In this document: positions 3,984-38,126 of the stretch, piece by piece
Numbering within the stretch: position 1 is the first letter of the stretch
How the letters are laid out: each line of letters begins with the position of its first letter
DNA from: a bacterium
GTDB lineage: Bacteria; Patescibacteriota; Minisyncoccia; Phycocordibacterales; UBA5272
DNA: 64,000 bases
Assembly: GCA_023267595.1 (NCBI GenBank)
Contig: JAHFNB010000001.1
Coordinates: 8,837 to 72,836 of the forward strand
Reading direction: 5' to 3'
Notes under the pieces: model-generated
Database searches by the model: none
The model's input: only the letters and a program-made list of their open reading frames with translations
What the model was told of the DNA's origin: nothing
Position numbers and translations under genes: made by a program

Positions 3984-5081
3984 ATGATGAAGAAAAAAGT
4001 TGCAAAACCGCCAAAAACAGTAGGAACACGAGAATCTAACGAAAAAGGAATGAGATCTGGTAATTCAGATGCATTGTTACGAGAAATACAAAATAAATTT
4101 GGTGAAGGATCAATGATGAAATTAGGAAGTGCACCGAAAGTTGATGTTGGTGTTGTTCCTACAGGATCACTTGGATTAGATGCTGCTCTTGGCGTTGGAG
4201 GATTACCTCGCGGAAGAATTGTAGAGATCTTTGGCCCAGAATCATCCGGTAAGACAACACTGACGCTCCACGTCATTGCAGAAGCACAAAAACTTGGGGG
4301 TATCTGTGCGTTTATTGATGCAGAACATGCAATGGACCCAGAATATGCCAAAAAACTTGGAGTAAATATAAATGAATTACTTATCTCTCAACCAGATAAT
4401 GGTGAACAAGCCCTTGAAATTGCAGAATCAATAGTACGAAGTGGAAAGGTAGATGTACTTGTTATTGACTCAGTCGCAGCACTTACACCAAAAGATGAAA
4501 TAGAAGGAGACATGGGAGCACAACATGTTGGAAAGCAAGCACGCCTCATGTCACAAGCACTTCGAAAATTAACTGCGATTGCTCATCGTTCACAAACAGT
4601 TATTATTTTTATCAATCAAATTCGTATGCAAATCGGTGTGATGTTTGGAAATCCAGAAACAACTCCAGGTGGAAAGGCACTTAAGTTCTACTCTTCTGTT
4701 CGCCTCGATATTCGTAAAATTGCTCAGATTAAAAAAGGAGATGATGTTGTTGGTGCTCGTACAAAAGTAAAAGTTGTAAAAAATAAAGTTGCAGCCCCTT
4801 TTAAAACAACTGAATTTGATATTATGTACAACGAAGGTATTTCTCGTGAGGGAGAACTTCTCGCACTTGGTGAAAAGTTTAAACTTGTGCAAAAAACAGG
4901 AAGCAGTTATACCTATGGAGATGAAAAACTAGGTCGTGGGTATGATGCTGCGCGTACATATTTACGAGAAAATAAAAAAGTTGGTGCTAAACTAACAAAA
5001 GAAATAGAAAAATTATTAGTAAGTGGTGCACTTTCATATTCTGGTTCTGTAGATCCAGAAGAAAATGAGCAACCAGAATAA
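3984..5081 (+). CDS. recA: recombinase RecA
   Basis: [36 protein letters not shown], full RecA core; ~25-aa N-terminal extension. Confidence 0.95.
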
Positions 5082-6056: not shown

Positions 6057-6160
6057 ATTATTCCAGATACGCGAAGTCTAGAGATTTTTGGAAGAAGACG
6101 TACATATACTAGTACGGCGACTGAGAAAAATCTCGTAGCGACAAAGTAGATGGGATGATT
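6057..6160. repeat. ~103-bp intergenic repeat element, copy 1
   Basis: ~93% identical to 19146..19248; contains nested inverted repeats gagattttt/aaaaatctc and cgtac/gtacg. Confidence 0.6.
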
Positions 6161-8900
6161 ATAGATTAAAGTTGTATTTTTTGAGTATTTCTGACTCCAC
6201 TTCTTCCTTTGGTCTTCCATACGTTAAATAACTTAATTCTTTCAGAGAATCGATTCGTGACATATCCCCTATCTTTGGTGGTAACGTAACAATATCAAAT
6301 GGTTTTCTTGGTTCACCATTAACAAGCATTTTTATATATGCATGGTAGTTTTCTATCTTCATGATATCTCCTGCAGTAAATGTAGGTGCAAATTGTTGCT
6401 CGAGATACTGTGCATCGTCTCCTCCTACACGAAATACGGCAAGTGATCCAACATTTCCAAATACTGCACCTTTTATATCTTCTGGTAATTGTGCAATGTA
6501 TTGATGTGCTACTGAAAGAGATAATCTGTACTTGCGTGCTTCAGATAAAATACTTGCGATACTTGGTGTCGTCACATTTTGGAATTCATCAATATACAAG
6601 AAAAAATCTGGTCGCTCTGTTGCGTTCACACGTGACATTGCTGCTTGAGATAATTTACCCACCAAGATAAGTCCAAGCAAATGAGAATTAATATCTCCAA
6701 GTCTTCCTTTTGAGAGATTTACTAGAAAAATCTTTTTCGTATCCATAATTTCTCTAAAATTAAAAGCAGATTTTTCCTGTGCAATAATCGGCCTCATAAT
6801 ATCATTTGACATAAACACATCAAACTTACTGTTAACATACTGTGTCCAGTTGGAGAGACCTTGCTCCCCTGTTGTTTTCTCTGCATTTTGCCAAAATTGT
6901 AAAAGAAGTGGATTTTTTGTTTTTGATAATTTGTAATCTCTGAAATCTTTATCAGAAAATACTCGTGATATTTCCAAAAGTGTATTTCCACTTTCTGGAT
7001 GTTCCATAACAAGAAGTGCTGCATTTCTAAAATATGATTCAAATCCTGGACCGCCGGAGACTTTCATATCAAATAATTTATTGAAAATGCCGAGTAATTC
7101 ATTAACCACAAATGTCTTTTGTTCGGGAAAATTCTTATCATATTCAAGCATATTTAATCCCATTGGACGCTCTATATAACTCGGATCAAAGTAAATGACA
7201 TCTTTGGTGCGCGCAGGTGGGATATGTGACAAAATATCTTGAATATCAGATCCATGAGGATCGATAAAGCAACACCCTTCCCCATTTTCAATATCTTGAA
7301 TAATCATATTTTTCAAGATAGATGTCTTTCCTGTTCCTGTTTGACCAATAACGTATAAATGTCTCATTCTATCCTCACGAGCAAAATGTATCGTTTGTTT
7401 TTGATCACGGAAATTATTTATACCAAGTACAATTCCTTCTGTTGGCATATCCATTGGGGCTTGGGCTGCTTTTTGTAACCTGACATTTGCCACATCTTTT
7501 GTCTGCATTGGAAAATGAAATACTGATGCGAGTTCAGAGATGTTAAGTGGGTAACTTTCATCTTCATTCCAAAGACGATATGAAAAGCGGTGAAGCAAGG
7601 CTTTTTGTTTTCTCCCATCTACTTCTTCCCACACAATACTATTTCCTCCAACAAGAGAAAACTGTGCGAACGCATTCTCCAAATCAGAACGTATTGCTTG
7701 TGCACGTGCAAAGTCTGCGGCTGAAGCAATAATACGAATATTTGTTTCAACAATTGTCTTTGCTAATTTTTCTTGTACATATTTCATTGCATTTTCTTCT
7801 ACCAATGATGGTTTCTTTTCTTTTTCCTTCTCTAATTGTTCTTTTGTTTTTGATGCTGAAAACATTTCACCAAGCACATGAAATGTTTCTTTAAGTGTGC
7901 TTTGTTTATCGATTACTCGTTTGAGTGTTTCTCCTTTTCGTAAATCCTCGAGCATATCACCGTATCGTTTTGCAAAGACATCTCCCGATGGACGTATGAG
8001 TAACTGTAGTGCAAGTCCTTCATTATCTTTTGCAATTTTTGTAAATGTTGAAAGAATAAGAGACATTGGATCGGCTTCCATGTTTTCATAGGTTTTTATA
8101 GGTAATGCAGGATGCGTACTTGCCTTAGCATACGAAGCAGCCGTGACTGCATGACTATGAAAAATATTATAATCATCTTTACACTCACGAACTTGTGCAG
8201 TTGGAAATACACCTAACACCACTTTTTCAAATAACGCCGCATAATCAATGTGTATTGCACAATAAAATGATGTCGTCGTAGTTCCGTTTGCTACACCCAG
8301 TTCAAGGGTATAATAATTCTTCTCTTTATTTGTTGCATCACTTGCGAGTGCCTGCATGGATGCATACCACTGTTCCATAAGTGCCATCATTTCCTTCATA
8401 CTCTTCACATTTCCCTCTGTTCCTTCTGGGAGTATCACTTCAAACAACTTCATATGAAGTGCTTTCCACTCATCTTTTGCAAGATTATTATCCATCACAT
8501 GACCAGAAAGAAGATACTGTACTAAGAATCTTTCAAAATCATCTTCCACTTCTGGATCATTTAATTCTTGCGCCATAATAAAGGCATTTTTCACCCCTTT
8601 ATCTGCCATAACTTGAGCAAGCATAGAAACTTGAGCATCAGTCTCTCGTGGAGATAACCATTCAAGCAATCTGTGTTTCTCTCCACTTGTTAATTGCACT
8701 TGTGGTGCAAGTATTTTTTCTTCTGGAACTTCTCTATAATCACGAACCACTTCACGAGCATGATCACTCTCTTTGAATCGATTTTCGAATCCTTTTGCAC
8801 GCTCAATTTTATTCGCAAGTTGCAAGCGTAAGTGTGCCACCTCTTCTTCAGGAGTAGTAAGCAGTGTATCCATACTGTACAGTTTACAGTTTACGGTCAA
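6159..8900 (-). CDS. FtsK/HerA/VirD4-superfamily P-loop ATPase (T4SS coupling-protein-like) with unknown ~450-aa N-terminal domain
   Basis: Walker A VIGQTGTGKTS, IDPHG, FDPSYIERPMGLNML, Walker B FFLYIDEFQN, RKYRLSLSVAHQYIAQL; no TM segment; starts 23 nt after map stop. Confidence 0.55.
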   Translation of the reverse strand: MTVNCKLYSMDTLLTTPEEEVAHLRLQLANKIERAKGFENRFKESDHAREVVRDYREVPEEKILAPQVQLTSGEKHRLLEWLSPRETDAQVSMLAQVMADKGVKNAFIMAQELNDPEVEDDFERFLVQYLLSGHVMDNNLAKDEWKALHMKLFEVILPEGTEGNVKSMKEMMALMEQWYASMQALASDATNKEKNYYTLELGVANGTTTTSFYCAIHIDYAALFEKVVLGVFPTAQVRECKDDYNIFHSHAVTAASYAKASTHPALPIKTYENMEADPMSLILSTFTKIAKDNEGLALQLLIRPSGDVFAKRYGDMLEDLRKGETLKRVIDKQSTLKETFHVLGEMFSASKTKEQLEKEKEKKPSLVEENAMKYVQEKLAKTIVETNIRIIASAADFARAQAIRSDLENAFAQFSLVGGNSIVWEEVDGRKQKALLHRFSYRLWNEDESYPLNISELASVFHFPMQTKDVANVRLQKAAQAPMDMPTEGIVLGINNFRDQKQTIHFAREDRMRHLYVIGQTGTGKTSILKNMIIQDIENGEGCCFIDPHGSDIQDILSHIPPARTKDVIYFDPSYIERPMGLNMLEYDKNFPEQKTFVVNELLGIFNKLFDMKVSGGPGFESYFRNAALLVMEHPESGNTLLEISRVFSDKDFRDYKLSKTKNPLLLQFWQNAEKTTGEQGLSNWTQYVNSKFDVFMSNDIMRPIIAQEKSAFNFREIMDTKKIFLVNLSKGRLGDINSHLLGLILVGKLSQAAMSRVNATERPDFFLYIDEFQNVTTPSIASILSEARKYRLSLSVAHQYIAQLPEDIKGAVFGNVGSLAVFRVGGDDAQYLEQQFAPTFTAGDIMKIENYHAYIKMLVNGEPRKPFDIVTLPPKIGDMSRIDSLKELSYLTYGRPKEEVESEILKKYNFNL

Positions 8901-8923: not shown

Positions 8924-9691
8924 CTATTGAGTGATAATTTCTGCTTTTCCGTCAGTAATCAAAATGGTATGTTCAAAATGCGCAGATTTTTTACCATCAC
9001 GAGTTTTAAAAGTATATCCATCATCTGCCAAATATACTTCATCAGTCCCTAGATTTACCATTGGTTCAAGTGCAAGTACCATTCCTTTTACAAGTTTTGG
9101 ACCCTTCACTCCATCATCAAAGTTTGGTACATAGGGTTCTTCATGTACTTTATACCCAACACCATGTCCTGATAATATTTTTACGATGCCATATTTTTTT
9201 GGAATTGCCTTTTCAATAGCACGTGATATATCATTTACATACTTTCCATTCTCTGCTGCGTGTATTCCTGCCATAAGCGCTTTCTTTGTCACTTCAATCA
9301 ATTCTTCTTCCTCTTTTGTTATTTTTCCAACAGGTACAGTTATTGCCGAGTCAGATATCATTCCTTTATGTGTCACTCCACCATCTAATCCAACAATATC
9401 CCCTTCTTTGAGCACATACTCCCCTCCTATGCCATGCACCACTTCATCATTCACTGAAATACAAATACTTCCTGGATATGGATAATCTGCCCCAAATGGT
9501 TGATAGTGTAAAAATGCAGGTTTGTCCCCCATCTCTACTATCATATCGTGAACAAAATCATTTAAATGTTGTGTGGTAACTCCAGGACGTACTTCATTTT
9601 TTACGGCCTGCAAAACACGCGCAAGTCTTTTTCCACTTTCACGTAGTATTTTTATATCATTTTCTGTTTTTATTTTTACATCATATTTCAT
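8924..9691 (-). CDS. map: methionine aminopeptidase type I
   Basis: pita-bread fold motifs HGIGG..., HFEHTILIT; start moved to MKYDVKIK (ORF-track start 9724 would overlap adk). Confidence 0.9.
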   Translation of the reverse strand: MKYDVKIKTENDIKILRESGKRLARVLQAVKNEVRPGVTTQHLNDFVHDMIVEMGDKPAFLHYQPFGADYPYPGSICISVNDEVVHGIGGEYVLKEGDIVGLDGGVTHKGMISDSAITVPVGKITKEEEELIEVTKKALMAGIHAAENGKYVNDISRAIEKAIPKKYGIVKILSGHGVGYKVHEEPYVPNFDDGVKGPKLVKGMVLALEPMVNLGTDEVYLADDGYTFKTRDGKKSAHFEHTILITDGKAEIITQ

Positions 9692-9710
9692 AACATGTAG
9701 TTTCCAGCAT

Positions 9711-10319
9711 CTATCCTCTAACATCTAACTTCTCCAGTATTTCTTTATGAACTTCTTCGATTGTTTGTTCACCGTTAATATGTAGCACCTTGTAACGTGG
9801 ATCATGTAAATACACATCAAGTGTAGGGAGTACTTCTGTCTCAAACCAAGAAAGTCTACGTTCTATATCCTCAATACTCTTATCATCATCACGTCCACGA
9901 GCAAGTAATCGTTCCTTTGACCAACCTTCAGAGACATCAACATAGACGACAATTGGTTTTTCATATCCTAAAAATGTAATAGCACTGTGTAATACATGTA
10001 CTTCAAAAGGTTTACGTGGCGCGCCATCAAGTAATATAGTTTCATCACCTTTAAGTGTGTTTATAAAAATATTTGCCCAATTATAGACAGCCAAAAACTC
10101 AGGTTGTAATGCTCCTAGTTCATTAACTTTTCTAGAGAGAGAAGAAACATAGGTATCTTGTTTTGCAAACGCACGAAAACCATCCCCTGTTGTGATATGG
10201 ACTACATTTTCTATACCTTTACCTTCCAATTCCTTTTTAAGTAATTCTGCCTGAGTCCCTTTCCCACATCCAGAACGCCCTATAAATATAAAGAATTGCT
10301 TCTGTCTTTCTCCTTGCAT
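9711..10319 (-). CDS. adk: adenylate kinase-like nucleoside monophosphate kinase
   Basis: P-loop IFIGRSGCGKGTQAE; spc-operon position between secY side and map. Confidence 0.75.
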   Translation of the reverse strand: MQGERQKQFFIFIGRSGCGKGTQAELLKKELEGKGIENVVHITTGDGFRAFAKQDTYVSSLSRKVNELGALQPEFLAVYNWANIFINTLKGDETILLDGAPRKPFEVHVLHSAITFLGYEKPIVVYVDVSEGWSKERLLARGRDDDKSIEDIERRLSWFETEVLPTLDVYLHDPRYKVLHINGEQTIEEVHKEILEKLDVRG

Positions 10320-10355
10320 TCCTGTATGCTATCACAAAATGTGAGAAAAATCTTC

Positions 10356-11009
10356 TTATACTCCGTAGACTTTCTTCAATGTTTCTTGATCACCCTTTAA
10401 TCGTCTTCCTTCTTTAATGTTTTTATATAGTTTATATCCACTGTAAGCCAAGTAACTTGCTCCTGCGACAATAGGCAACACTCCAAATGTACTAGCAGCC
10501 AATATACCAGTACCTGTAACGACTCCTGTACTACCTGTTGCTAGAGTGCTAATAAATCCTGGAACTAATGATGCATTTACTAATATATAACCCATACCGG
10601 CTACAATAACTGGTAATGTAACTGCTTCCATTGCACCAAAGGAAGAAGATGTACTGGTAGATTTTATAATAGTCTCTGCTTCTCCATAATTTTTTCCCTG
10701 AATATTTGGATATTTTTGAAGAAGTTCATTATGTGCAACATCACTTTCATTTGGTGTAATTGGTGATACTACCTCTTTTTTCTCTGGAGTATTCATTGCT
10801 ACTGGCGTAGCAATTTGTTCAGGAGGTTTTGAGAGTGTTTCAGTTAATTTTTCTACACGCATTGTATCTTCTGACTTTGGTAATTCTGGAATTGGTGTCT
10901 CGAACTTTGCATCTAGGTTTTGTAGAAGAATTGCGGGAGATTCTACTTGTGCTGCCTCTTCAACAGATACTGGCTCAAAATCAATACTATTATTTGGTTT
11001 ATTTTCCAT
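10356..11009 (-). CDS. glycine-zipper membrane protein, paralog B of tandem pair
   Basis: N-terminal MENKPNNSIDFEPVSVEEAAQVESPAI identical to paralog A; acidic middle; Gly/Ala/Ser-rich C-terminal TM segments; start set at conserved MENK. Confidence 0.55.
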   Translation of the reverse strand: MENKPNNSIDFEPVSVEEAAQVESPAILLQNLDAKFETPIPELPKSEDTMRVEKLTETLSKPPEQIATPVAMNTPEKKEVVSPITPNESDVAHNELLQKYPNIQGKNYGEAETIIKSTSTSSSFGAMEAVTLPVIVAGMGYILVNASLVPGFISTLATGSTGVVTGTGILAASTFGVLPIVAGASYLAYSGYKLYKNIKEGRRLKGDQETLKKVYGV

Positions 11010-11016
11010 ATTTTTA

Positions 11017-11667
11017 TTAAGCAAAAACTTTTCTCGCACGATTCGTATTAATCATATTTTTTATCTTACGCACACCCTGATATAAAAGATATGCTGCACC
11101 ACCTACTGCAATAACTGGGCCGACTACAGAAGTAGCCCCCAACATAGTCATTTCAATTGTACCACTTGTTAAAAGAGCAGAAACTCCAGATGACAAAACC
11201 CCTTGTCCTGCAGAATTTGCCGCCGCAAGTCCAAGAAGAGACAACATTCCACCACCAATCACTGTAACACCAGATACAGTGGATTTTTCTTTTATATCCA
11301 ACCTTTCAAAATCTAGACCAGATTTTACTGTATTTTCTGGTGTGTCAGATGGACCCATTTTTCTTCCATAATCACCATAACTACTCATAAGTGAATTCAA
11401 AACTTGATTTTCTTTTACTTGACCTTCAACTGTATTTTCTTCACTCTTAATTTCTGGAGATGTAGGTAATTTTTCTTGTAGTATAAGTGAATCTTTTATT
11501 TCTTGAGCACGAATTATATCTTCTGGTTTTTGATCTACAGACTTTGATACTTCGTATTTTGCATCTAAATCTTCCGGAGGAATTGCAGGAGATTCTACTT
11601 TTGCTGCTTCTTCAACAGATACTGGCTCAAAATCAATACTATTATTTGGTTTATTTTCCATATCCAA
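11017..11667 (-). CDS. glycine-zipper membrane protein, paralog A of tandem pair
   Basis: same N-terminal 27 aa as paralog B, ~75 nt near-identical at DNA level; C-terminal GGGMLSLLGLAAANSAGQG...GPVIAVGGAAYLLY. Confidence 0.55.
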   Translation of the reverse strand: MDMENKPNNSIDFEPVSVEEAAKVESPAIPPEDLDAKYEVSKSVDQKPEDIIRAQEIKDSLILQEKLPTSPEIKSEENTVEGQVKENQVLNSLMSSYGDYGRKMGPSDTPENTVKSGLDFERLDIKEKSTVSGVTVIGGGMLSLLGLAAANSAGQGVLSSGVSALLTSGTIEMTMLGATSVVGPVIAVGGAAYLLYQGVRKIKNMINTNRARKVFA

Positions 11668-11732
11668 ATAGTATATACCTGACTCAAAATAAAAACACTA
11701 CCTGTATCAAGGTAGTGTTTTTATGTAAAAAA

Positions 11733-12992
11733 CTAGTATTCTTTCATAGAAAGTTGAGCATCAATCTTCTTTATCAAATCAAGTACTACTGATACAACAA
11801 TTAGCAAACTCGTTCCCCCAACTTGAATTGCTGTTAATCCAGTCACTGCTTGCACAACAACAGGAAGAACAGCAACTATTCCTAAGAAAACTGCACCAAA
11901 AAGTGTCACACGAGCAAGGACATACCCAATATGTTCTGCCGTTGCGGTTCCTGGTCTATATCCTGGGATAAACGCACCATTTTTCTGAAGGTTATCTGCT
12001 GTCTTTTCTGGATCAAACATTACTGCCGTATAAAAATACGTAAATGTTACAACAAGAAGGAAATACACTCCTCCATACACCCAATGATTTGCAAGTAATG
12101 AATTAACTGTAATTGCAACTGAACGAAGCATATCTTGTGAAGATGTTGCAAGTAATTGACCTAGTAATTGTGGAAAAAGTAAAATTGAAATTGCAAAAAT
12201 TATCGGCACCACTCCTGCTTGATTAAGACGAAGTGGAAGATATGTCGAATGTCCTAATGTACTTCCTGACATACGTGTTTGACGTGCATAAGTCACTGGT
12301 ACTGGACGTTCTGCTTCTGTTACATATACAACTCCTGCAATCACAATAAGCGATAATACAAGTAGCCCTACAACCATCGGAATCTGTGATACATCAAATG
12401 TAATGAAAAATTGTCCCAAATGTTGTGGAAGTGCCGCAACAATACCTGCGAAAATAATTAAAGATACTCCATTTCCAATACCTTTTTCATTAATCTGTTC
12501 ACCTAGCCACATCATGAGCATGGTACCTGCAGTAATGATAATGAGGTTAAGTGCCATAACTTCTCCTGTTAAACCAGAAATAACATTCTGACGTGAAAGA
12601 AGGGTAAGGAGTGCAAATCCCTGAAGTACCGCCATAGGAAGAGTAAGTAAACGACCATATTGTACAAAGCGACGACGTCCTTGATCTCCCTCTTCTTGAT
12701 ACATCTCTTTAAGACGAGGTGAAAGTACCGTCGTTAACTGCATAATAATAGATGCAGTAATATATGGTCCAACACCAAGCATCACAATAGAAAATGATGC
12801 GATTCCCCCTCCTGCAAAGATATTAAGTAATCCGAAAAAACTATTGTTCTGTAAAAATTGTGCAAGATTTGATGCATCAATCCCCGGAATTGGGATAACT
12901 GCGAGTATTCGAGTAAGTACCAAAACACCAATAACAAATAAAATACGGGTACGTAGTCCGCGATCAGAAAAAATTGCCGTTAAGGTATTCAT
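11733..12992 (-). CDS. secY: preprotein translocase SecY
   Basis: 10-TM SecY architecture, conserved plug/loop motifs. Confidence 0.95.
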   Translation of the reverse strand: MNTLTAIFSDRGLRTRILFVIGVLVLTRILAVIPIPGIDASNLAQFLQNNSFFGLLNIFAGGGIASFSIVMLGVGPYITASIIMQLTTVLSPRLKEMYQEEGDQGRRRFVQYGRLLTLPMAVLQGFALLTLLSRQNVISGLTGEVMALNLIIITAGTMLMMWLGEQINEKGIGNGVSLIIFAGIVAALPQHLGQFFITFDVSQIPMVVGLLVLSLIVIAGVVYVTEAERPVPVTYARQTRMSGSTLGHSTYLPLRLNQAGVVPIIFAISILLFPQLLGQLLATSSQDMLRSVAITVNSLLANHWVYGGVYFLLVVTFTYFYTAVMFDPEKTADNLQKNGAFIPGYRPGTATAEHIGYVLARVTLFGAVFLGIVAVLPVVVQAVTGLTAIQVGGTSLLIVVSVVLDLIKKIDAQLSMKEY

Positions 12993-15092: not shown

Positions 15093-15476
15093 TTACCAAA
15101 TTGTGAATAAAAGTTCGCCGCCGACCATTTCTTTGCGGGCTTGTTTATCTGTCATGATGCCTTTTGGTGTTGAAAGCACGAGGATTCCATGACCATACTT
15201 CACAGGAGAAATATCTTTTACACCTGTATACATACGCTTTGATGGTTTTGAAACACGCTTCACATCGTGAACACGTGGTGCTCCACCTTTATATTCAAGC
15301 ACAACTTCTACAGTTGGCTTTGTACCATCCTGCACATGATATGTCTTGATGTACCCTTCTTGTTTAAGGAGTTCAAGTATTGCCACCTTCATTTTTGATG
15401 AAGGAATAGTAATACTGGTCTTTTTTACAAGACCCGCATTTTTAATTGCGATGAGCATGTTTGCTAGTGTGTCCAT
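15093..15476 (-). CDS. rpsH: 30S ribosomal protein S8
   Basis: MDTLANMLIAIKNA..., operon position. Confidence 0.9.
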   Translation of the reverse strand: MDTLANMLIAIKNAGLVKKTSITIPSSKMKVAILELLKQEGYIKTYHVQDGTKPTVEVVLEYKGGAPRVHDVKRVSKPSKRMYTGVKDISPVKYGHGILVLSTPKGIMTDKQARKEMVGGELLFTIW

Positions 15477-15849: not shown

Positions 15850-16320
15850 TTATCCGATACGTAACACACTACTTAGTCCTCGTAACTTCTTTTTTCTCTG
15901 TTCTATGAGTTTTGCTTTTTCATCACTAGAGAGAGCGACTCTTAATGTGTCTTCGAAATCTCTCTGCTCTCTTTCTGCCATCTTTTGACTTGTAATAGCA
16001 GCAAAGAATCCCCACGCAGAGCGTGCTTGACCTTGCTTATGCAGTGCACATAATCGAAATTCTTTTTGCCTCATGATTTCAGGATCTTGTGCATCAAGAG
16101 CATCTGCTATAACAATTAAAGAGTTAGGAAATGGAGGTCGTGTATCTTGATCATCATCTCGATATATCTCGATCGCCTCAGAAATATCTTTCTTCCTATA
16201 TTCAAAACCAGGACAATTTTGGAGAGAAAAATGATATCCTCGTATGTGCTCTACTTCATCTCTTTTTTTATGACCAGCCTCTTGATAGCCACAATTTCTA
16301 CAAATAAATCCGTAAGCCAT
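15850..16320 (-). CDS. hypothetical Cys/His-containing protein (possible zinc-ribbon N-terminus) inserted in spc operon
   Basis: 156 aa; N-terminal CRNCG...H...H...C; acidic/helical remainder; no family recognised. Confidence 0.4.
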   Translation of the reverse strand: MAYGFICRNCGYQEAGHKKRDEVEHIRGYHFSLQNCPGFEYRKKDISEAIEIYRDDDQDTRPPFPNSLIVIADALDAQDPEIMRQKEFRLCALHKQGQARSAWGFFAAITSQKMAEREQRDFEDTLRVALSSDEKAKLIEQRKKKLRGLSSVLRIG

Positions 16321-16383
16321 GATTCACCTCAAAGAACAAAAGTTACTTCCTACACTACTACACCGTAAAAGTGTGTCAACATA

Positions 16384-16905
16384 ATGAATTACATTATAAA
16401 AAAGTATATACTACAGTACATGCAAATTATTTTTTACGTATTGGAAGTTATTGGACTATGGAAAATGTTTGAAAAAGCACACGTTGCAGGATGGAAAGCA
16501 CTTATTCCTGTATATAGCACATACCACAAAGTTAAAATTGCTAATCGTTCTCTTTCTTTCTTTTGGTTTATGATTTCTCCTTTTATTGGTGTATTTATTA
16601 CAGTGATATTATGGGGAATTATTGGTCTTTTTTCTTCAATACTAGGAGATACTTCCCCTCTCATTACTCTCTTCTCTGATCTAGTAAGTAGAACTGTCCC
16701 ATTTTTTGTTGGTCTCTTTGTTATCTTAGTTCTTATCGTTACACTACCACTTGGTATTATTTTGCAATATGATATTGCAAAATCATTTGGTAAAGGTGCT
16801 TGGATGACTGTAGGATTAGTCCTTGTTCCTTTTATCTGTAACTTAGTCTTAGGATACGGAAAAGCAGAATATAAAAAAATACATAGAACAAAAGAAGAAC
16901 AGTAA
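16384..16905 (+). CDS. DUF5684-like small polytopic membrane protein
   Basis: 173 aa; motif LWKMFEKAHVAGWKALIPVYSTYHKVKIA plus 3-4 TM helices; opposite strand to flanking ribosomal genes. Confidence 0.45.
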   Translation: MNYIIKKYILQYMQIIFYVLEVIGLWKMFEKAHVAGWKALIPVYSTYHKVKIANRSLSFFWFMISPFIGVFITVILWGIIGLFSSILGDTSPLITLFSDLVSRTVPFFVGLFVILVLIVTLPLGIILQYDIAKSFGKGAWMTVGLVLVPFICNLVLGYGKAEYKKIHRTKEEQ

Positions 16906-16938
16906 ATAAAAAACCAGTCCATAGGACTGGTTTTTTAT

Positions 16939-18303
16939 TTACCAAGCAATCGGCATTGCATTTCCTGTAACTGTTGTCTGTGCAGTTCCTACTACTTGTC
17001 CAGATGGATTTGTAATATTTGCAATAAATACAACATCTTGTTTATAGTACGTACTATTTGTAATCATTGCAGGAATCTCCTGTTGAGCACTATTAAGCGT
17101 AAATGGCATTGCAAACTCCTGACCACATGGAATACCTGCTACGGTTACTTGTACATTAGCAATAGGACATACTGCGTGAATACGTAATGAGTATTGACCA
17201 TAAATACTTGCATCATAGTAATTACTTGCAGGAATGTTGATGTAAAGTCTGAATAATTCACCAGAGTTTACTGGGTTCTTATTTGCAGAGATAACTACAT
17301 TACCATAGAAAGAATATGGACGTTTGATAAAGATTGGAGAAACGGCTGCGCGGAATGTAGAGGTAACACCTGCAATATCCGTAAGAGGAGTTGTGATAAC
17401 AATACGATATGAACCTTGAGCATAATTTTGTGCACATGATCCAGTACAAAGATAATCTAGAATATCTTTTGTAAGAGTAAACGTAGCAGAATTACCACTT
17501 GTTGTCATAATGTACTTACTTTGTCCAGAACTATTTTCAAGGAGAATCTGATACTGACTCGCATTAATATTATTTGTAGTCCATGTAACATTTACCGTAT
17601 CTCCTTCATTGTAATGACTGTCAGTTCCTGGTGAAGAAATAGAGAGTGTCCCTGGTTGTGGAATAAGACCATAGGTATATCCAATGTTTGGACTGTAGAC
17701 AATATTTGTACCATATACAAACGATGTATTTGTTGTTGCAGGTGTAATTACATTTGTCGTAATTGGATTGTATGAATTATATGCGGTATAGTTTGAACCT
17801 GTTGTTCCGTACGTATACGTTGGATTATTTGAGTTAGTGATGATAGTCGATGTGATATTTTTTACATATGGATCATATGTATCTACAACTGTTGTACCTG
17901 CTGAATATCCATAATCATAATTTGAATATGATGTATTGTATGTATTTGAATTGTAGGTATTTCCATTACAAAGTTGTGCATTGATTAGATCACGTGTTGA
18001 TTGTCCTACTGTACCTGTTGTAAGAAGACCACTATTTGATTGAAAAGACACAACTGCAGAATACGTAGCCGGACCAAAGTAACCATTTGGTGTTGCATAG
18101 AGATAACCACGTCCTGCTAGAAAGTTTTGAAGTGTGTATACATCTTCATTTTCAGAACCAGACTGAAGTGTACGAGTGATAGATGTACCACATCCATAAT
18201 TATTATAATCGGTAAAAATACCTGCAAAGGTAAATGTTGGAGTACTGAGGAAAAATCCCACAAATCCAAGGAGAAAAATACTGTTTTTGATTCCTGTTTT
18301 CAT
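16939..18303 (-). CDS. secreted protein: signal peptide + peptidoglycan-binding (PG_binding_1-like) domain + N/T/Y/S-rich low-complexity linker + Cys-containing C-terminal domain
   Basis: N-terminal MKTGIKNSIFLLGFVGFFLSTPTFTFA; DVYTLQNFLAGRGYL...GPATYSAVVSFQ matches PG-binding helix pattern; ~120-aa N/Y/T/S-rich repeat-like region. Confidence 0.6.
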   Translation of the reverse strand: MKTGIKNSIFLLGFVGFFLSTPTFTFAGIFTDYNNYGCGTSITRTLQSGSENEDVYTLQNFLAGRGYLYATPNGYFGPATYSAVVSFQSNSGLLTTGTVGQSTRDLINAQLCNGNTYNSNTYNTSYSNYDYGYSAGTTVVDTYDPYVKNITSTIITNSNNPTYTYGTTGSNYTAYNSYNPITTNVITPATTNTSFVYGTNIVYSPNIGYTYGLIPQPGTLSISSPGTDSHYNEGDTVNVTWTTNNINASQYQILLENSSGQSKYIMTTSGNSATFTLTKDILDYLCTGSCAQNYAQGSYRIVITTPLTDIAGVTSTFRAAVSPIFIKRPYSFYGNVVISANKNPVNSGELFRLYINIPASNYYDASIYGQYSLRIHAVCPIANVQVTVAGIPCGQEFAMPFTLNSAQQEIPAMITNSTYYKQDVVFIANITNPSGQVVGTAQTTVTGNAMPIAW

Positions 18304-18412: not shown

Positions 18413-18973
18413 TTACGCCTTCTTAAACGGAATACCAATAAGTTCAAAAAATGCTGTCGCCTCCTCTTTTGTCTTTGCAGTTGTTCCAAGAGTAATTGCC
18501 ATTCCAAATATATCCTTTAATTCTTCATCTTTAATTTCTGGGAAAATAGTATGTTCTTTGATACCAAATGTCATATTTCCAATATTATCCACTGATGTCT
18601 TATTGAGTCCACGAAAGTCCTTAGTACGAGGAAGAGATACGTTTAATACCTTGTCTAAGAATCCAAACATACGTGCACCACGAAGTGTTACTGCAACACC
18701 GATTGGATCTCCGATACGTGTCTTAAATGAAGCAACGGCTTGCTTTGCTTTGCGAAGTGTTGGACGTTGTCCTGTAATCTTTGTAAGGCGATCAATTACG
18801 AGATCATTTCGCTTACGATCTTTCTTCATTGCAGTTCCTGTTGCGACAGAAACACTTACCTTTACTAAGTGAGGTGATGCAAGTTTATTTTTATATCCGA
18901 ATTGCTTTGCTAATGTTGCATACGCAAGTTCCTGCTTTTCTTTTACTCCTATAAATTCACTTTTCTTTGCCAT
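18413..18973 (-). CDS. rplE: 50S ribosomal protein L5
   Basis: ITGQRPTLRKAKQAVASFKTRIGDPIGVAVTLRG... Confidence 0.9.
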   Translation of the reverse strand: MAKKSEFIGVKEKQELAYATLAKQFGYKNKLASPHLVKVSVSVATGTAMKKDRKRNDLVIDRLTKITGQRPTLRKAKQAVASFKTRIGDPIGVAVTLRGARMFGFLDKVLNVSLPRTKDFRGLNKTSVDNIGNMTFGIKEHTIFPEIKDEELKDIFGMAITLGTTAKTKEEATAFFELIGIPFKKA

Positions 18974-32162: not shown

Positions 32163-33122
32163 CTATTTCTCTGTCTCTACTTCCATTAATCTCCCATCAG
32201 TTATAAATGAAATAGTCCCATGTGTTATCGTTGAAAGAATTTCTTTGCTATATTTTTGTAATCGTTCTAATGCTTCAGGATTTGGATGCCCATATCTATT
32301 GTCTTTTCCAGCACTTATAACTGCATATTCTGGTTTACTATATTTCAATAACAATTCACCATTAGATGATTTACTTCCGTGATGACCTGCTTTATAGACA
32401 GTAATATTTTTATCTAATCCTGCTATAATTAATTTTCCTTCTTCTGTACTTGGTAAATCCCCCGTCAGTAAAAAAGTGTCGTTTCCAAATTTTATTTCCA
32501 TACTCACTGAAGCATCATTCGTATCATTCTTTTTTCCAATAAACTTTTCTGTATAATTTTTTGGTGGATACAAAATTGTTGCAATCACTCCATCATGAAA
32601 ATCTATCTCATCATTTATTTCTGCAACACGCACATCTGCACTTTCATCTTCAATATGTTTTGTTAGATCTGCAAACACTCCTGTTATACTTTCTGCTTTT
32701 GAAATTACAACTGTATGCACATTATATTTTTCTAGTACTGGGATTAATCCTGTTACATGATCTGCGTCCGGATGTGTCGCGACGATGACATCAATATCGT
32801 TATCAAAATAATTTAATTGCTTCGATAATTTTTCCAATATTTTATTTGTAGGACCACCGTCTACTAGCATTGTGTGTCCGCTTGGTGTTTGTATTAAAAT
32901 TGAATCCCCTTGTCCGATATCTAGAAATGATACGCGTAATTTTTGTGGAGTAAGTAAAATTATTATTTGATACAACATGACACCACCTATGAAAAATAAA
33001 ATACTGATAGCAATTATTTTTCCATAATTACGGAAAAACATTATAATGTTTTCTCTTATTTCGAGAATCCATTCTTTCATAATATACATACTATCATATA
33101 TGATCCTACTACCACCTCTCAC
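32163..33122 (-). CDS. ComEC/Rec2-type metallo-beta-lactamase domain protein (stand-alone, N-terminal TM anchor)
   Basis: FLDIGQGDSILIQ, ATHPDADHVTG, YKAGHHGSK, GHPNPEAL motifs. Confidence 0.75.
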   Translation of the reverse strand: MRGGSRIIYDSMYIMKEWILEIRENIIMFFRNYGKIIAISILFFIGGVMLYQIIILLTPQKLRVSFLDIGQGDSILIQTPSGHTMLVDGGPTNKILEKLSKQLNYFDNDIDVIVATHPDADHVTGLIPVLEKYNVHTVVISKAESITGVFADLTKHIEDESADVRVAEINDEIDFHDGVIATILYPPKNYTEKFIGKKNDTNDASVSMEIKFGNDTFLLTGDLPSTEEGKLIIAGLDKNITVYKAGHHGSKSSNGELLLKYSKPEYAVISAGKDNRYGHPNPEALERLQKYSKEILSTITHGTISFITDGRLMEVETEK

Positions 33123-33145
33123 CTAAAACCTGTAAACTGATCTAC

Positions 33146-33721
33146 ATGGACTTACATACACTCATTTCATCTGGCTCATATGTAGCAATATTTTTACTCA
33201 TGACTACAAACGGTATTGCAAATCTTCCGTCGTCACAATTCCTTTATATTATTTGTGGCTACTTTATTGCAACAGGAAATCTTCTTTTTATTCCAACAAT
33301 TATTGCAGGTGCACTAGGTAACACTCTTGGTAACATCATTACATTTTTACTTGTGAAAAAATATGACAAACCTTTTGCTAGAAAATTATTAATGATGAAC
33401 GAAGAAACATTTACCAAAGTTCATGCTGCACTACACTCAACATTTACACATAAAGGTATGTGGTGGATTTTCTTGGGTAAACTGACACCTTCTGTAAAAG
33501 CATTTATTCCAGTCGTCGCAGGTCTCGCTAGTACTCCAAAAAAACTCACGTATTTTATTTTTCTAATCGCGTCCTTTATCTGGGCGACAGGTATTACATT
33601 CCTCGGGTACAAGTTTGGAGAGCATATCACATTCACTTCTTTTTCAATCATTTCATTAGCAATTGGTAGTATCATCTTATTTGTTATATATAAAAATCTA
33701 AAGAAAAAATTAGACTTCTAA
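33146..33721 (+). CDS. DedA/SNARE-associated (VTT) family membrane protein
   Basis: 191 aa, 4-5 TM, PSSQF... and G-x-G motifs. Confidence 0.55.
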   Translation: MDLHTLISSGSYVAIFLLMTTNGIANLPSSQFLYIICGYFIATGNLLFIPTIIAGALGNTLGNIITFLLVKKYDKPFARKLLMMNEETFTKVHAALHSTFTHKGMWWIFLGKLTPSVKAFIPVVAGLASTPKKLTYFIFLIASFIWATGITFLGYKFGEHITFTSFSIISLAIGSIILFVIYKNLKKKLDF

Positions 33722-35238
33722 TAGGAGATGACATCTGTGAGAACTCCGTCTTCATACGTACTCTTCGTTTCATTTTTTATTTTGTGTACAAAATAAATCA
33801 TAAAGAAAAATAGTGACACATACACTAAACACATTTCTAAAAATGAAATCGTGAGTGTAAATGTTGAGAATGGTAATCTCTCAATTACTTCTGCTACATG
33901 TAACATAAATGAAATTACAAGCATATCTGCGATACCAAATACTGATGAAATCACACCTGATATATACGACATAACTACTACAATACATGATAGTAGCATT
34001 GCGAGTGGTACAAGAGGAAGTACGATAACATTCGCGATAAGTGCATACACTGATACTGTGCCGAATGTATACATAATATATGGAAGTGTCACCACATAAG
34101 CAGATAATGTTGTGATACATAATTCTTTCAAAGCACGCGTTGAAATATTTTTAAATATGTTCCCGATTGGTTCTGCAAAATATACTATCCCTGCAGTTGC
34201 GAGAAATGAAAGATGAAGTGACACATCATGCAGCAATGCATATGGTTCATACATCACAATTAAAAATAGTGAAATAATGAGTGCTTGTTTTGCTACATAT
34301 TGTCGACCAAGTAATGTTGCGAGTAATGTAATAAAAGCCATGAGTGTCGCACGTATCACACTTGCCTCCCCTCCCACCATCATCACAAATAAGATTACAG
34401 AAACACTAGCAAGTGTGATACGAACAAAAAGCGGTAAGAAAATAAACACAAATAATATAAAAGAAATCACTACTGCAATATTGAATCCTGACAAAACGAT
34501 GATGTGTGATAATCCTGCTGTGCGAAATGTTTGAATAAGTTCTTTTGATAATGAAGAGTCACCGAATAACATTCCAGTTGCAAGTGCTGATTCTGGTACA
34601 CTCACATATCTTTCAATACGTAAAATTAAATTTTCTTTCCACCTTCCTAAAATATCTTTCACTGTGTGTGCTTCAATATCTATTATTTCAATTTGTGGAT
34701 AAAATATTTCACTACCAATATTTCTTGTCGCCAAATATGATGCGTAGTCGAAACTCTTTGCACTTCCATGTGATGGTATTACATCCGGCTCCGAAACTTT
34801 CCCTGTTATCTGTAGTGTCTCTCCTATTTTATATTTTGGATACAGTGGTGTACGAAGTTGCACATCAAAAATATTTTCTTCATGAGTGATTGGATGCACA
34901 GTAAATATCTGATATGCATCTTTTGATTCAGGTGAAGAAATGATTGTTGCATCAAATGTGCAAATTTTTTCACACACAAAATTATTCTTTTCTTCTACCA
35001 ACTGCACTCGTATTATTCCAACTACTAATCCAATAGAAAATAATATTGTAACCAGAGGAATTCTGTATTTACCGTCAACTGTAAACTGTTGTCTGTTAAC
35101 TAGCAACAGTGGTGCTTGTATAAATACAAGCACCACTGTTGCTACTGCCACTTCTGTTGCAAACCTTGAAACTTCACCAACTACTATTCCCAAACATATT
35201 CCTACAATCAGAACTAATGTTTTTGAGTGTATATTCAT
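33718..35238 (-). CDS. comEC: ComEC/Rec2 DNA-uptake channel, membrane domain (no MBL domain in this ORF)
   Basis: competence domain GMLFGDSSLSKELIQTFRTAGLSHIIVLSGFNIAVV and many TM helices. Confidence 0.7.
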   Translation of the reverse strand: MNIHSKTLVLIVGICLGIVVGEVSRFATEVAVATVVLVFIQAPLLLVNRQQFTVDGKYRIPLVTILFSIGLVVGIIRVQLVEEKNNFVCEKICTFDATIISSPESKDAYQIFTVHPITHEENIFDVQLRTPLYPKYKIGETLQITGKVSEPDVIPSHGSAKSFDYASYLATRNIGSEIFYPQIEIIDIEAHTVKDILGRWKENLILRIERYVSVPESALATGMLFGDSSLSKELIQTFRTAGLSHIIVLSGFNIAVVISFILFVFIFLPLFVRITLASVSVILFVMMVGGEASVIRATLMAFITLLATLLGRQYVAKQALIISLFLIVMYEPYALLHDVSLHLSFLATAGIVYFAEPIGNIFKNISTRALKELCITTLSAYVVTLPYIMYTFGTVSVYALIANVIVLPLVPLAMLLSCIVVVMSYISGVISSVFGIADMLVISFMLHVAEVIERLPFSTFTLTISFLEMCLVYVSLFFFMIYFVHKIKNETKSTYEDGVLTDVISY

Positions 35239-38124: not shown

Positions 38125-38126
38125 AA

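Follow-up and report, generated by a model that had tools for sequence, protein, structure and literature searches.

The window (the whole stretch of DNA that was analysed, 64 kb) comes from an uncultivated ultra-small bacterium of the Paceibacteria-type CPR; its SecY is 58-88% identical to the SecY of 80+ Paceibacteria/'Nomurabacteria'-type MAGs. Two adjacent open reading frames lie on the minus strand between secY and adk, as an earlier note on this DNA had reported with coordinates only a few bases out. They are called genes A and B here, and the locus and its neighbours are as follows.

11733-12992, minus strand: secY, the upstream flank of the locus (Pfam SecY match)
11017-11661, minus strand: gene A, 214 aa, ATG at 11661, A-type body
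11582..11663, minus strand: gene A copy of the 5' high-identity tract, from 2 nt before the ATG to codon 27
11010..11016, minus strand: spacer of 7 nt from the gene A stop to the gene B ATG, without a Shine-Dalgarno sequence
10356-11009, minus strand: gene B, 217 aa, ATG at 11009, B-type body
10930..11011, minus strand: gene B copy of the 5' high-identity tract, from 2 nt before the ATG onward
9711-10319, minus strand: adk, the downstream flank of the locus (Pfam ADK match)
8924-9724: map, beyond adk
6159-8900: DUF8128/TrwB/TraG-like (T4CP-like) ATPase, two genes downstream and 1.4 kb away, in conserved synteny
3984-5081: RecA, about 6 kb from genes A and B

The first 27 residues of the two proteins are identical except for K/Q at position 21, and 79 of 82 positions match when the 5' ends are aligned as nucleotides (blastn E 5e-36 within the window), which bears out the earlier description of a near-identical start; the 64-kb window has no third copy of this tract. 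Could the shared region be an assembly artefact such as a collapsed repeat? Other contigs rule this out. The same arrangement of A and B is found on a 57.5-kb k141 ENA contig and in a record whose longest contig is 185 kb, and a contig from an independent sample shows 100% identity along 4776 nt. The last of these ends inside the 5' tract of gene B, and an end inside a repeat is what is expected of a short-k assembler. Beyond the tract the genes are about 24-34% identical, and pS between them is 0.16 in codons 1-30 and 0.44-0.89 across the rest of the gene. To say that they diverge completely is nevertheless too strong: an end-to-end alignment of the two proteins has 34% identity (E 1e-24), and DNA similarity goes on at ~65% to roughly 178 nt. 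Genes A and B are tandem paralogues, as had been proposed.

Both proteins have the acidic, Pro/Glu-rich middle and the Gly/Ala/Ser-rich hydrophobic C-terminal region noted earlier, laid out in this way.

Gene A: N-module 1-~60, acidic linker, helices 77-129, uncharged Gly/Ala/Ser/Thr-rich block 127-197, basic tail 198-214
Gene B: N-module, acidic linker, confident helical pair 88-122, uncharged block 117-192, basic amphipathic helix to 215

Residues 1 to ~120 are hydrophilic and acidic, with Kyte-Doolittle values <0.3 throughout and a net charge of -12 in gene A, and neither sequence has a hydrophobic N-terminal segment or signal peptide. The uncharged block is 71-76 residues long, contains no K, R or D, is 54% Gly/Ala/Ser/Thr, and is followed by the basic tail.

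Relatives of these proteins are few. Word-indexed protein searches, whether started from A, from a 21-member alignment or from an N-module alignment, returned almost only known sequences, and only an exhaustive HMMER search of 1.84 billion representatives found the family: 23 proteins (about 25 relatives), nearly all of 204-231 aa, aligning end to end, and all from Paceibacteria-type CPR bacteria. When metagenomes were scanned for a degenerate DNA pattern of the N-module, 27 loci came up, about the chance expectation, and none of them encodes a family member. Profiles from Pfam, NCBIfam, PHROGs, PADLOC and the PDB gave only sub-threshold compositional matches (LysE, DUF2207_C, Holin-X, tape-measure, NheB). 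The members share a common plan. An N-module of ~47-60 aa, with the consensus PDNSIDFEPVSIEEAAKxxSPA...LDAKF...PEDxxR, is followed by an acidic, Pro/Glu-rich and weakly constrained linker, a helical segment specific to the subtype, an uncharged block (53-91 residues without K, R or D, of which about 50% are Gly/Ala/Ser/Thr) and an amphipathic, cationic tail with the motif GYKxxKN...R...FGK. Net charge ranges from -2 to -16 in the N-domain and from +2 to +8 in the tail.

Every member with visible neighbours occupies the position secY|X|adk (the window, L013, L018, L021, L082, L085-87, L088, L089, L119 and the P0014 contig), in one, two or three tandem copies. About 70 of 80 species representatives have no family gene between secY and adk; since most relatives do without it, any role must be dispensable. 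Values of dN/dS are 0.06-0.07 for secY and adk, about 0.35 for the family block plus tail, and 0.5-1.65 for the linker, which indicates genes that are functional but evolve fast. The diversifying selection on the middle that had been suggested goes too far, because omega in the linker is never significantly >1 (Fisher p >= 0.11), and alleles that differ do so over the whole body, hydrophobic block included. The best explanation as a whole, to which we give a probability of roughly 60%, takes A and B for two intact genes of a small and hitherto undescribed family confined to a subclade of Paceibacteria-type CPR bacteria, with the single chromosomal slot, the -10 box of its own and the exchange of bodies that are described here.

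The locus is polymorphic, shuffles cassettes and encodes a new, modular protein family. The nearest neighbour of an N-module is the gene next door and that of a body is another genome: the gene A body is closest to L082 genes 1 and 2 (50-56%) and the gene B body to P0004, P0005 and P0007 from other genomes (43-47%). Because each body has closer relatives elsewhere, the duplication is old and the identical 5' end is a tract homogenised later. Recent duplication, which had been offered as a source of the 5' identity, therefore fails as its sole cause; the other source offered, gene conversion, is supported (more broadly, recombination as opposed to chance). We infer that the 82-nt stretch is a gene-conversion or recombination tract, copied from A to B or from B to A. 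There are at least six body subtypes, mutually <30% identical, and their distribution does not follow the SecY phylogeny. The L085 body, for instance, is 55% identical to the L089 body although the SecY proteins are only 75% identical, and L018 is the closest SecY relative of L089 (86%), yet its body is only 24% identical.

One such exchange separates L013 from L085. Their SecY proteins are 100% identical and, as far as codon 47 of the family gene, the two DNAs agree at 99.7% of positions; ~565-627 nt beyond this point cannot be aligned, homology resumes 3 nt into adk, and identity is 97.4% from adk onwards. Behind the identical 47-codon N-module the two bodies are 25% identical. In the three-gene array of L082 there is a 612-nt repeat of 82.7% identity whose layout is exactly [body - spacer - N-module] x 2; within this repeat a 235-nt tract of about 96-100% identity (~99%) crosses a gene junction. 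The arrays hold in-frame chimeras with breakpoints at the boundary between N-module and body.

Selection on a nucleotide-level element, such as a translation initiation signal or regulatory RNA, could in principle keep the 5' ends alike in place of recombination. The tract does start 2 nt before the ATG, and the first gene is probably leaderless, so that its 5' coding sequence could affect initiation. Three findings make this very improbable: the tract sequence differs by genome (NSIDF-type in the window, MSFVDLAEG-type in L082 and L013), the L082 tract also covers the upstream spacer and reaches into the 3' end of the gene before it, and synonymous sites of the N-module diverge normally across species (pS 0.50-0.60, codons 1-45).

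In the recombination reading, the N-module coding sequence would provide the upstream homology anchor and adk the downstream one, and bodies would be duplicated by unequal crossing-over and exchanged between these anchors. It is of note that the window also carries a RecA gene, 6 kb from A and B. Variable membrane-protein genes of the vsp/vlp/vsa type in Mollicutes are similar in several respects, with clustered paralogues in small genomes, near-identical 5' DNA and diverged remainders, chimeras, and changes in copy number. There the conserved part consists of a promoter together with a lipoprotein signal peptide, internal repeats make up the variable part, and expression is phase-variable. 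The N-module here is instead hydrophilic and acidic, no repeats or phase-variation tract are seen, and the hydrophobic part is C-terminal.

Two features bear on how the genes are transcribed.

11689..11724, minus strand: terminator-like hairpin directly after the secY stop, with a 15-bp perfect stem, a 6-nt loop, an A run before and a T run after
11670..11675, minus strand: -10-like hexamer TATACT, 8 nt upstream of the gene A ATG

The hairpin folds as RNA at -18.3 kcal/mol (z = -4.72), a stability that none of 200 shuffled sequences equals; comparable long-stem hairpins stand 3' of secY in many relatives, with or without a family gene. In eight lineages (the window, L013/L085, L018, L021, L082, L084, L088 and L089) the first family gene has TATACT 8-9 nt upstream of its start codon. 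Because a hairpin follows secY and a conserved -10 box sits near the ATG, genes A and B probably head their own transcription unit. The placement of TATACT points to an mRNA that is probably leaderless or near-leaderless, and gene B is probably translated from the same transcript as gene A. Neither gene is preceded by a Shine-Dalgarno sequence, and other genes of this genome also lack one. Terminator-like hairpins are also found 3' of the family gene in L085, L088 and L089, where the single gene is monocistronic. The hairpin and T run that part secY from gene A, and the -10-like box that gene A has of its own, speak against the proposed co-expression of the pair with core translation genes.

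Is the uncharged block a membrane domain? Its Kyte-Doolittle maxima are 1.76-1.83. Uncorrected Hessa-scale sums are +2.3 for A and +3.2/+3.8 for B, compared with -2.6 to +4.0 for the SecY helices of this genome, and four soluble controls have no segment with a sum <= 4. The hydrophobic segments of A and B are accordingly marginal, at the weak end for membrane helices, and the proteins may instead be soluble or exported. Two topologies are compatible with the block, two helices and a loop (N-in/C-in) or three helices (N-out/C-in), and its pLDDT in AF2 models is 36-64.

The earlier note had read the proteins as glycine-zipper two-TM pore oligomers, co-expressed with the ribosomal/secY operon, recently duplicated, and diversifying in a surface-exposed middle. 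The uncharged block with its 54% Gly/Ala/Ser/Thr in both proteins, the linker omega near or >1 in some segments, and the near-identical 5' ends all fit this. Families such as Gly-zipper_Omp/YMGG/OmpA, Rick_17kDa_Anti and Transgly_assoc/YmgE-GlsB resemble these proteins in a short hydrophobic stretch that is rich in Gly, carries no charge and possibly folds as a helical hairpin. The family proteins, however, are much longer and modular, and the (G/A/S)xxxGxxxG spacing that defines a zipper is absent from A and B: A has no GxxxG and B has one, and both have no zipper triplets. Across the family GxxxG is depleted (23 observed vs 50 expected, z = -4.0, from non-independent sequences of a small family), and zipper triplets total 13 vs 27.9 expected from composition. 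No glycine-zipper Pfam family (PF13488, PF13441, PF13436, PF05433, or PF04226 for YmgE/GlsB) matches any of the 21 members at E<=1 or any of eight isolated C-terminal parts at E<=10, and a literature search for glycine zippers in Patescibacteria found nothing. As the hairpin and separate -10 box also part the genes from secY, the duplication is old by the affinities of the bodies, and omega is never significantly >1, the reading as a whole is quite improbable.

A divergent array of VirB2-like type IV secretion pilins would account for Gly/Ala-rich hydrophobic helices in variable tandem arrays. Pilins of the VirB2/TrbC type have an N-terminal signal or leader peptide, then about 70 aa with two hydrophobic helices. 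The family proteins are about twice as long and have no N-terminal signal peptide, their first ~120 residues being acidic and hydrophilic; no TrbC, VirB2, TraA or T4SS-pilin Pfam model matches them, even when the C-terminal parts are searched in isolation at E <= 10. Their locus is fixed at secY|adk, and no virB4 occurs among the 29 larger ORFs scanned in the window. Within the same phylum, 441 arrays of 2-11 tandem VirB2-like pilin genes with an average identity of 25% have been described in Patescibacteria (PMC12102498), and these resemble the present arrays in their short, divergent paralogues and varying copy number. The 125-aa acidic N-domain, the cationic tail and an N-module common at the DNA level nonetheless set the family apart, and a pilin function is hardly credible.

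An origin as a holin or other prophage-derived membrane protein is just as hard to believe. Hydrophobic helices followed by a charged C-terminal tail would suit a holin, and Holin-X (PF07332) appears in 4 of 21 members, but below threshold (best E 0.0079, 16.7 bits vs a cut-off of 28.4). Searches of phage genomes, IMG/VR contigs and plasmids gave no match, and PHROG matches are only compositional. The locus is flanked by secY and adk, without an endolysin or phage gene beside it, and keeps this chromosomal position in lineages whose SecY proteins are 71-88% identical to one another; a 125-aa acidic N-domain is, besides, atypical for holins.

The proteins might also be exported effectors or toxins, in which a marginal block skips the producer's membrane and inserts into that of a host or competitor, with the alleles reflecting an arms race. 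The cationic tail or the N-module would then act as export signal, and the T4CP-like ATPase or another Patescibacteria secretion machine as exporter. Hydrophobicity is indeed marginal relative to this genome's own membrane proteins, the anionic N-domain and cationic tail give a precursor-like layout, the N-terminus is conserved and the remainder hypervariable and exchangeable, and the DUF8128/TrwB/TraG-like ATPase is near and in conserved synteny. Many VirD4-like T4CP genes of Patescibacteria lie away from virB4, with their role open (PMC12102498), which counts for such an exporter. The top structural and profile matches, weak and non-significant, are alpha-pore-forming toxins (NheB, E 0.06; by Foldseek AhlB, AhlC, SmhB and MakA, E > 1). 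Against this, all structural matches are insignificant, no immunity-like partner gene is present (in L085, L088 and L089 the gene stands alone between terminator-like hairpins), a signal peptide and any known toxin or secretion-linker domain are missing, and no virB4 occurs among the annotated window ORFs (29 larger ORFs scanned). The ATPase, moreover, also follows map in many relatives that lack the family. Export as an effector is therefore unlikely. A fuller version, distinctly unlikely, has an episymbiotic CPR cell delivering a shuffled effector repertoire into its host's membrane: marginal hydrophobicity would spare the producer, the tail or N-module would be the signal for the ATPase, and balancing selection in a host-symbiont arms race would keep the deeply divergent body alleles that are shared across species.

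A strict association of the family with the ATPase was rejected, given the genomes without the family in which the ATPase follows map. The ClyA-type alpha-pore-forming toxins (NheB, AhlB, SmhB) match neither in sequence nor in fold: the NCBIfam NheB score is 12.4 bits vs a cut-off of 500 and Foldseek PDB matches have E >= 1.6 and TM-scores <= 0.26.

Polymorphic toxins and double-glycine-leader bacteriocins (CDI, Rhs, LXG, blp/pln) are comparable in combining a conserved N-module with exchangeable C-terminal cassettes in tandem arrays, and in allelic replacement at the module boundary between conspecific strains, here L013 and L085. Mature parts of bacteriocins are Gly/Ala-rich and cationic. 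The present locus differs in having no immunity gene, GG leader, C39 transporter, or known toxin or secretion-linker domain; Pfam, NCBIfam, PADLOC and PDB profile searches found no toxin, immunity or trafficking domain. Transmembrane effectors of secretion systems whose membrane segments have reduced hydrophobicity, among them those with bilobed Inc-type domains, offer another parallel in a marginally hydrophobic 'bilobed' domain of 55-90 residues, a host-dependent bacterium and fast evolution. They differ in that no signal sequence was identified in A and B, for which secretion is only putative.

As the most likely mode of action we tentatively propose the following, to which we would give clearly less than even odds. 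A marginally hydrophobic, Gly/Ala-rich helical hairpin would anchor the protein in the membrane of the cell that makes it, the cationic tail facing the cytoplasm, and the conserved N-terminal peptide would dock onto a conserved partner. A strain-specific property, for example oligomer or partner specificity, would be set by the exchangeable body, and an antagonistic interaction with a host, phage or competitor would maintain the allele classes.

Few loci of CPR/Patescibacteria inform on strain variation in these host-dependent cells, most of whose genes are unannotated. If the function were ordinary membrane housekeeping, the value of this one would be limited to a tidy case of concerted evolution. 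That said, the secY|adk locus offers a handle, with a fixed and easily found address, a clear modular plan, breakpoints that can be seen, and six or more old allele classes whose distribution departs from the organismal tree. Such patterns usually mark antagonistic or recognition molecules, so the locus could mark strain-level diversity and its protein is a candidate player in the interactions of Paceibacteria with hosts, phages or competitors.

The downstream flank has a signal of its own.

10326..10334, minus strand: extended -10-like box TGaTAGCAT, 6 nt upstream of the adk ATG

In 8 of 8 lineages compared, adk is preceded by a box of the form TGnTAG(T/C/G)AT at 6-10 nt (mostly 6-7) from its ATG, and judging by its position TGaTAGCAT would be a promoter of adk itself, of leaderless type. 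The 'ribosomal super-operon' of these bacteria thus appears cut into short, leaderless-looking units with terminator-like hairpins between them, which would explain why accessory genes gather at such junctions.

Genes A and B are adjoining paralogs between secY and adk, set among the following genes:

11733-12992, minus: secY
11017-11661, minus: gene A, 214 aa
10356-11009, minus: gene B, 217 aa, separated from gene A by a 7-nt spacer
9711-10319, minus: adk
8924-9724, minus: map
6159-8900, minus: DUF8128/TrwB-like ATPase, 913 aa, matching DUF8128 and, weakly, TrwB_AAD_bind and TraG-D_C
3984-5081: RecA gene, inside the window

The window has a G+C content of 36.7%, and its SecY is 58-88% identical to SecY from MAGs labelled Nomurabacteria, Paceibacterota or Parcubacteria. 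The near-identical 5' ends of A and B, pointed out in the earlier note, were confirmed: 11582-11663 and 10930-11011 agree at 79 of 82 nt, the tract begins 2 nt upstream of each ATG, and residues 1-27 differ solely by K/Q at position 21. A third copy of the tract was not found within the 64-kb window. The further statement that the genes diverge completely after this region was too strong, because the proteins can be aligned over their whole length (34% identity, E 1e-24). Could the repeat be an assembly artefact? This was rejected, since the same arrangement is found on a 57.5-kb k141 contig and in a record whose longest contig is 185 kb. A Logan contig from an independent sample (L118, SRR14366791) is 100% identical to the window over 4776 nt, and its position 1 lies 24 nt into gene B, within the 82-nt repeat, the expected break point for a short-k assembler. 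The repeat breaks short-k assemblies, as this contig end shows, and such arrays may stay hidden in public data.

Neither Pfam nor NCBIfam gave a match above threshold to A or B, and a word-indexed protein search returned only A and B themselves. When 1.84 billion representatives were searched exhaustively with HMMER, 23 proteins were recovered, nearly all of 204-231 aa and aligning end to end. Among 21 members tested there was no significant match to Pfam, PHROG, PADLOC or PDB profiles; Foldseek found no fold relative, and nothing resembling the family was present in phage, plasmid and IMG/VR collections. Within the databases searched, this is a new family. Its members share a conserved N-terminal part (N-module) with the consensus PDNSIDFEPVSIEEAAKxxSPA, then LDAKF/Y, then PEDxxRxxE (one variant starts MSFVDLAEGKLG), followed by the body of the protein: an acidic linker rich in Pro/Glu/Ser/Thr, a helical segment that differs by subtype (in B residues 88-122, pLDDT about 94), a block of 53-91 residues free of K, R and D in which Gly/Ala/Ser/Thr make up 46-67%, and a cationic tail, GYKxxKN...R...FGK, whose net charge is +2 to +8, that of the N-domain being -2 to -16. 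Two proteins on very short contigs, P0012 (83 aa) and P0019 (114 aa), have an N-module and then an early stop; gene decay or the ends of assemblies may explain them. In P0022 (375 aa) a B-type body stands behind a long unrelated N-terminus that lacks the N-module.

The pair had been read as glycine-zipper proteins, a type that commonly forms pores. Neither claim is supported, and the spacing that defines a zipper is absent: A and B have no zipper triplets, and GxxxG occurs 0 times in A and once in B. Family-wide, both patterns are depleted relative to composition (GxxxG, 23 observed vs 50 expected, z = -4.0; triplets, 13 vs 27.9). Kyte-Doolittle maxima of A and B are 1.76-1.83, and uncorrected 19-residue sums on the Hessa scale come to +2.3 for A and +3.2/+3.8 for B. 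The same calculation gives -2.6 to +4.0 for the ten SecY helices of this genome and no segment at or below 4 in EF-G, RecA, NusA or the ATPase. By these values the uncharged block could form membrane helices, but at the weak end of the range and with none of the strong hydrophobicity of an anchor helix. The helices that AF2 predicts for B span 126-146, 149-158, 166-174 and 177-215, with a low-confidence middle; confidence for A is only 36-43. The positive tail should be cytoplasmic; the acidic N-domain may lie either inside (two helices) or outside (three helices). In the blocks of 23 members, large hydrophobic residues recur with a period of 11 residues (z = 4.2) and are avoided at i+1, i+2 and i+4, and small residues favor i+3, i+8 and i+11, statistics that are inflated by the relatedness of the 23 sequences.

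The marginal hydrophobicity of the block also speaks for the main rival explanation, in which the protein is an exported membrane-targeting effector or toxin. The layout of an anionic pro-region with a cationic tail and the nearby T4CP-like ATPase would suit such a function; however, the ATPase also occurs without the family, and the family has neither an immunity gene nor a known secretion signal. We regard this explanation as improbable. Tandem arrays of VirB2-like pilins with high divergence, along with numerous orphan T4CP genes, are reported from Patescibacteria, the window ATPase being of the orphan VirD4-like kind noted there (PMC12102498). The A/B family differs from these pilins in its doubled length and lack of a signal peptide, and with no HMM match either, identity as a VirB2-like pilin is very unlikely.

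All members with a visible neighborhood occupy the secY-adk position (the window, L013, L018, L021, L082, L085-87, L088, L089, L119 and the P0014 contig). Most loci carry a single copy; the window has two and L082 has three. Only 3/80 species representatives with a related SecY have the family. In the remainder, secY and adk are 27 nt to 2.8 kb apart, with cargo that is unrelated between species: a toxin-antitoxin-like pair (55+90 aa) in L002; P-loop nucleotide-kinase-like genes in L044, L047, L058, L063, L064, L067 and L071; and large membrane or secreted proteins in L035 (585 aa), L033 (469 aa) and L062 (461 aa). Given this varied cargo and variable gap, the junction is a hotspot in the clade, a general landing site for accessory genes.

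Are A and B co-expressed with the translation operon, as had been proposed? The claim is not supported, in view of a terminator-like hairpin after secY and a separate promoter-like box. At 11689-11724, directly 3' of secY, lies a terminator-like hairpin (perfect 15-bp stem followed by a T run; fold -18.3 kcal/mol, z = -4.7), and hairpins with similarly long stems stand after secY in many relatives, whether or not they carry the family. In eight lineages the leading family gene has TATACT 8-9 nt upstream of its ATG (11670-11675 in the window), and none of the eight shows a Shine-Dalgarno there. From these signals we infer a separate unit that starts at the family gene and is leaderless or nearly so. 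Before adk, at 10326-10334 (minus), is an extended -10-like box with the conserved form TGnTAG(T/C/G)AT, 6-10 nt (mostly 6-7) from the ATG and at the same position in L013, L018, L021, L082, L085, L088 and L089. A terminator-like hairpin also follows the family gene in L085, L088 and L089; none was seen 3' of B in the window, so A and B may read through into adk. Shine-Dalgarno sequences were absent from every gene inspected, which suggests that leaderless or SD-independent expression is widespread in the lineage.

Nearest-neighbor analysis placed the body of A with L082 genes 1 and 2 (50-56%) and that of B with P0004, P0005 and P0007 (43-47%), whereas the N-modules of A and B are each other's nearest neighbor. 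Synonymous divergence between A and B is 0.16 in codons 1-30 against 0.44-0.89 elsewhere. The incongruence and the low 5' divergence support the gene-conversion reading of the earlier note, and we extend it to a polymorphic cassette locus: the shared 5' end appears to be a recombination tract within an old, modular family. A functional nucleotide-level element as the cause of the identity is unlikely, because the tracts differ between genomes and synonymous sites diverge normally across species.

Other loci point the same way. L082 reveals the mechanism: a 612-nt repeat (82.7% identity) consists of two units, each with the body of one gene, a spacer and the N-module of the next gene. This is a tandem-duplication product with breakpoints at the N-module/body boundary, gene 2 being an in-frame chimera. 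Inside the repeat, a 235-nt tract across the gene junction is ~96-100% identical, the remainder 56-86%, and the tract reflects homogenization later than the duplication. L013 and L085 have identical SecY and 99.7% identical DNA through codon 47 of the family gene, after which 565 nt of L013 and 627 nt of L085 cannot be aligned; from adk on they are 97.4% identical, which shows allelic exchange. Body subtypes do not track SecY: L085 and L089 bodies are 55% identical with SecY at 75%, and L018 has the SecY closest to that of L089 (86%), yet their bodies are 24% identical. Codons 46-125 of A differ from L082 gene 1 by a dS of 0.26, compared with 0.83-1.26 for flanking housekeeping genes of the same genomes; both genomes come from sample ERZ27279942, which hints that part of an A-type body was recently exchanged between co-occurring lineages.

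These comparisons show that the gene is modular, that it keeps to one operon boundary in variable copy number, and that cassettes are exchanged and junctions homogenized, with breakpoints at the N-module boundary. Other variable gene families display genetic behavior of this kind. Here it is probably generated by unequal crossing-over and gene conversion that depend on RecA, the N-module coding sequence and adk serving as homology anchors. As to function, we tentatively propose, at a probability of roughly 30%, a hairpin membrane protein anchored at its C-terminus, whose conserved N-terminal peptide would dock a conserved partner and whose exchangeable body would give strain-specific properties, with antagonistic interaction maintaining the body alleles. 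The locus is clearly delimited and lends itself to testing.

In comparisons of the window with L082, dN/dS was 0.06-0.07 for secY and adk, about 0.35 for the hydrophobic block plus tail of A-type genes, and 0.5-1.65 for the linker. The non-synonymous excess in the linker was never significant (Fisher p >= 0.11), which leaves the proposed diversifying selection on the middle unsupported, positive selection there being possible. The family genes are functional and evolve fast, in a phylum in which orphan membrane proteins that evolve rapidly are commonplace.

Several further features of the neighborhood were seen. The ATPase at 6159-8900 (minus), T4SS coupling-protein-like and placed directly after map, keeps its position in 30+ relatives, whether or not they carry the family. 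The ribosomal-protein cluster is split between rplE (18413-18973) and rpsH (15093-15476) by three non-ribosomal ORFs at 15850-18303 (minus), encoding a 454-aa secreted-looking PG_binding_1 protein and proteins of 162 and 156 aa without a Pfam match; PG_binding_1 giants also lie directly upstream of secY in L088 and the P0014 contig. A Type III restriction-modification pair (ResIII helicase, 757 aa; N6_N4 methylase, 513 aa) occupies 35851-39668 (minus), and ComEC is apparently split into two adjoining ORFs at 32163-35238 (minus), with the Competence domain in an ORF of 506 aa and the metallo-beta-lactamase domain in one of 319 aa.
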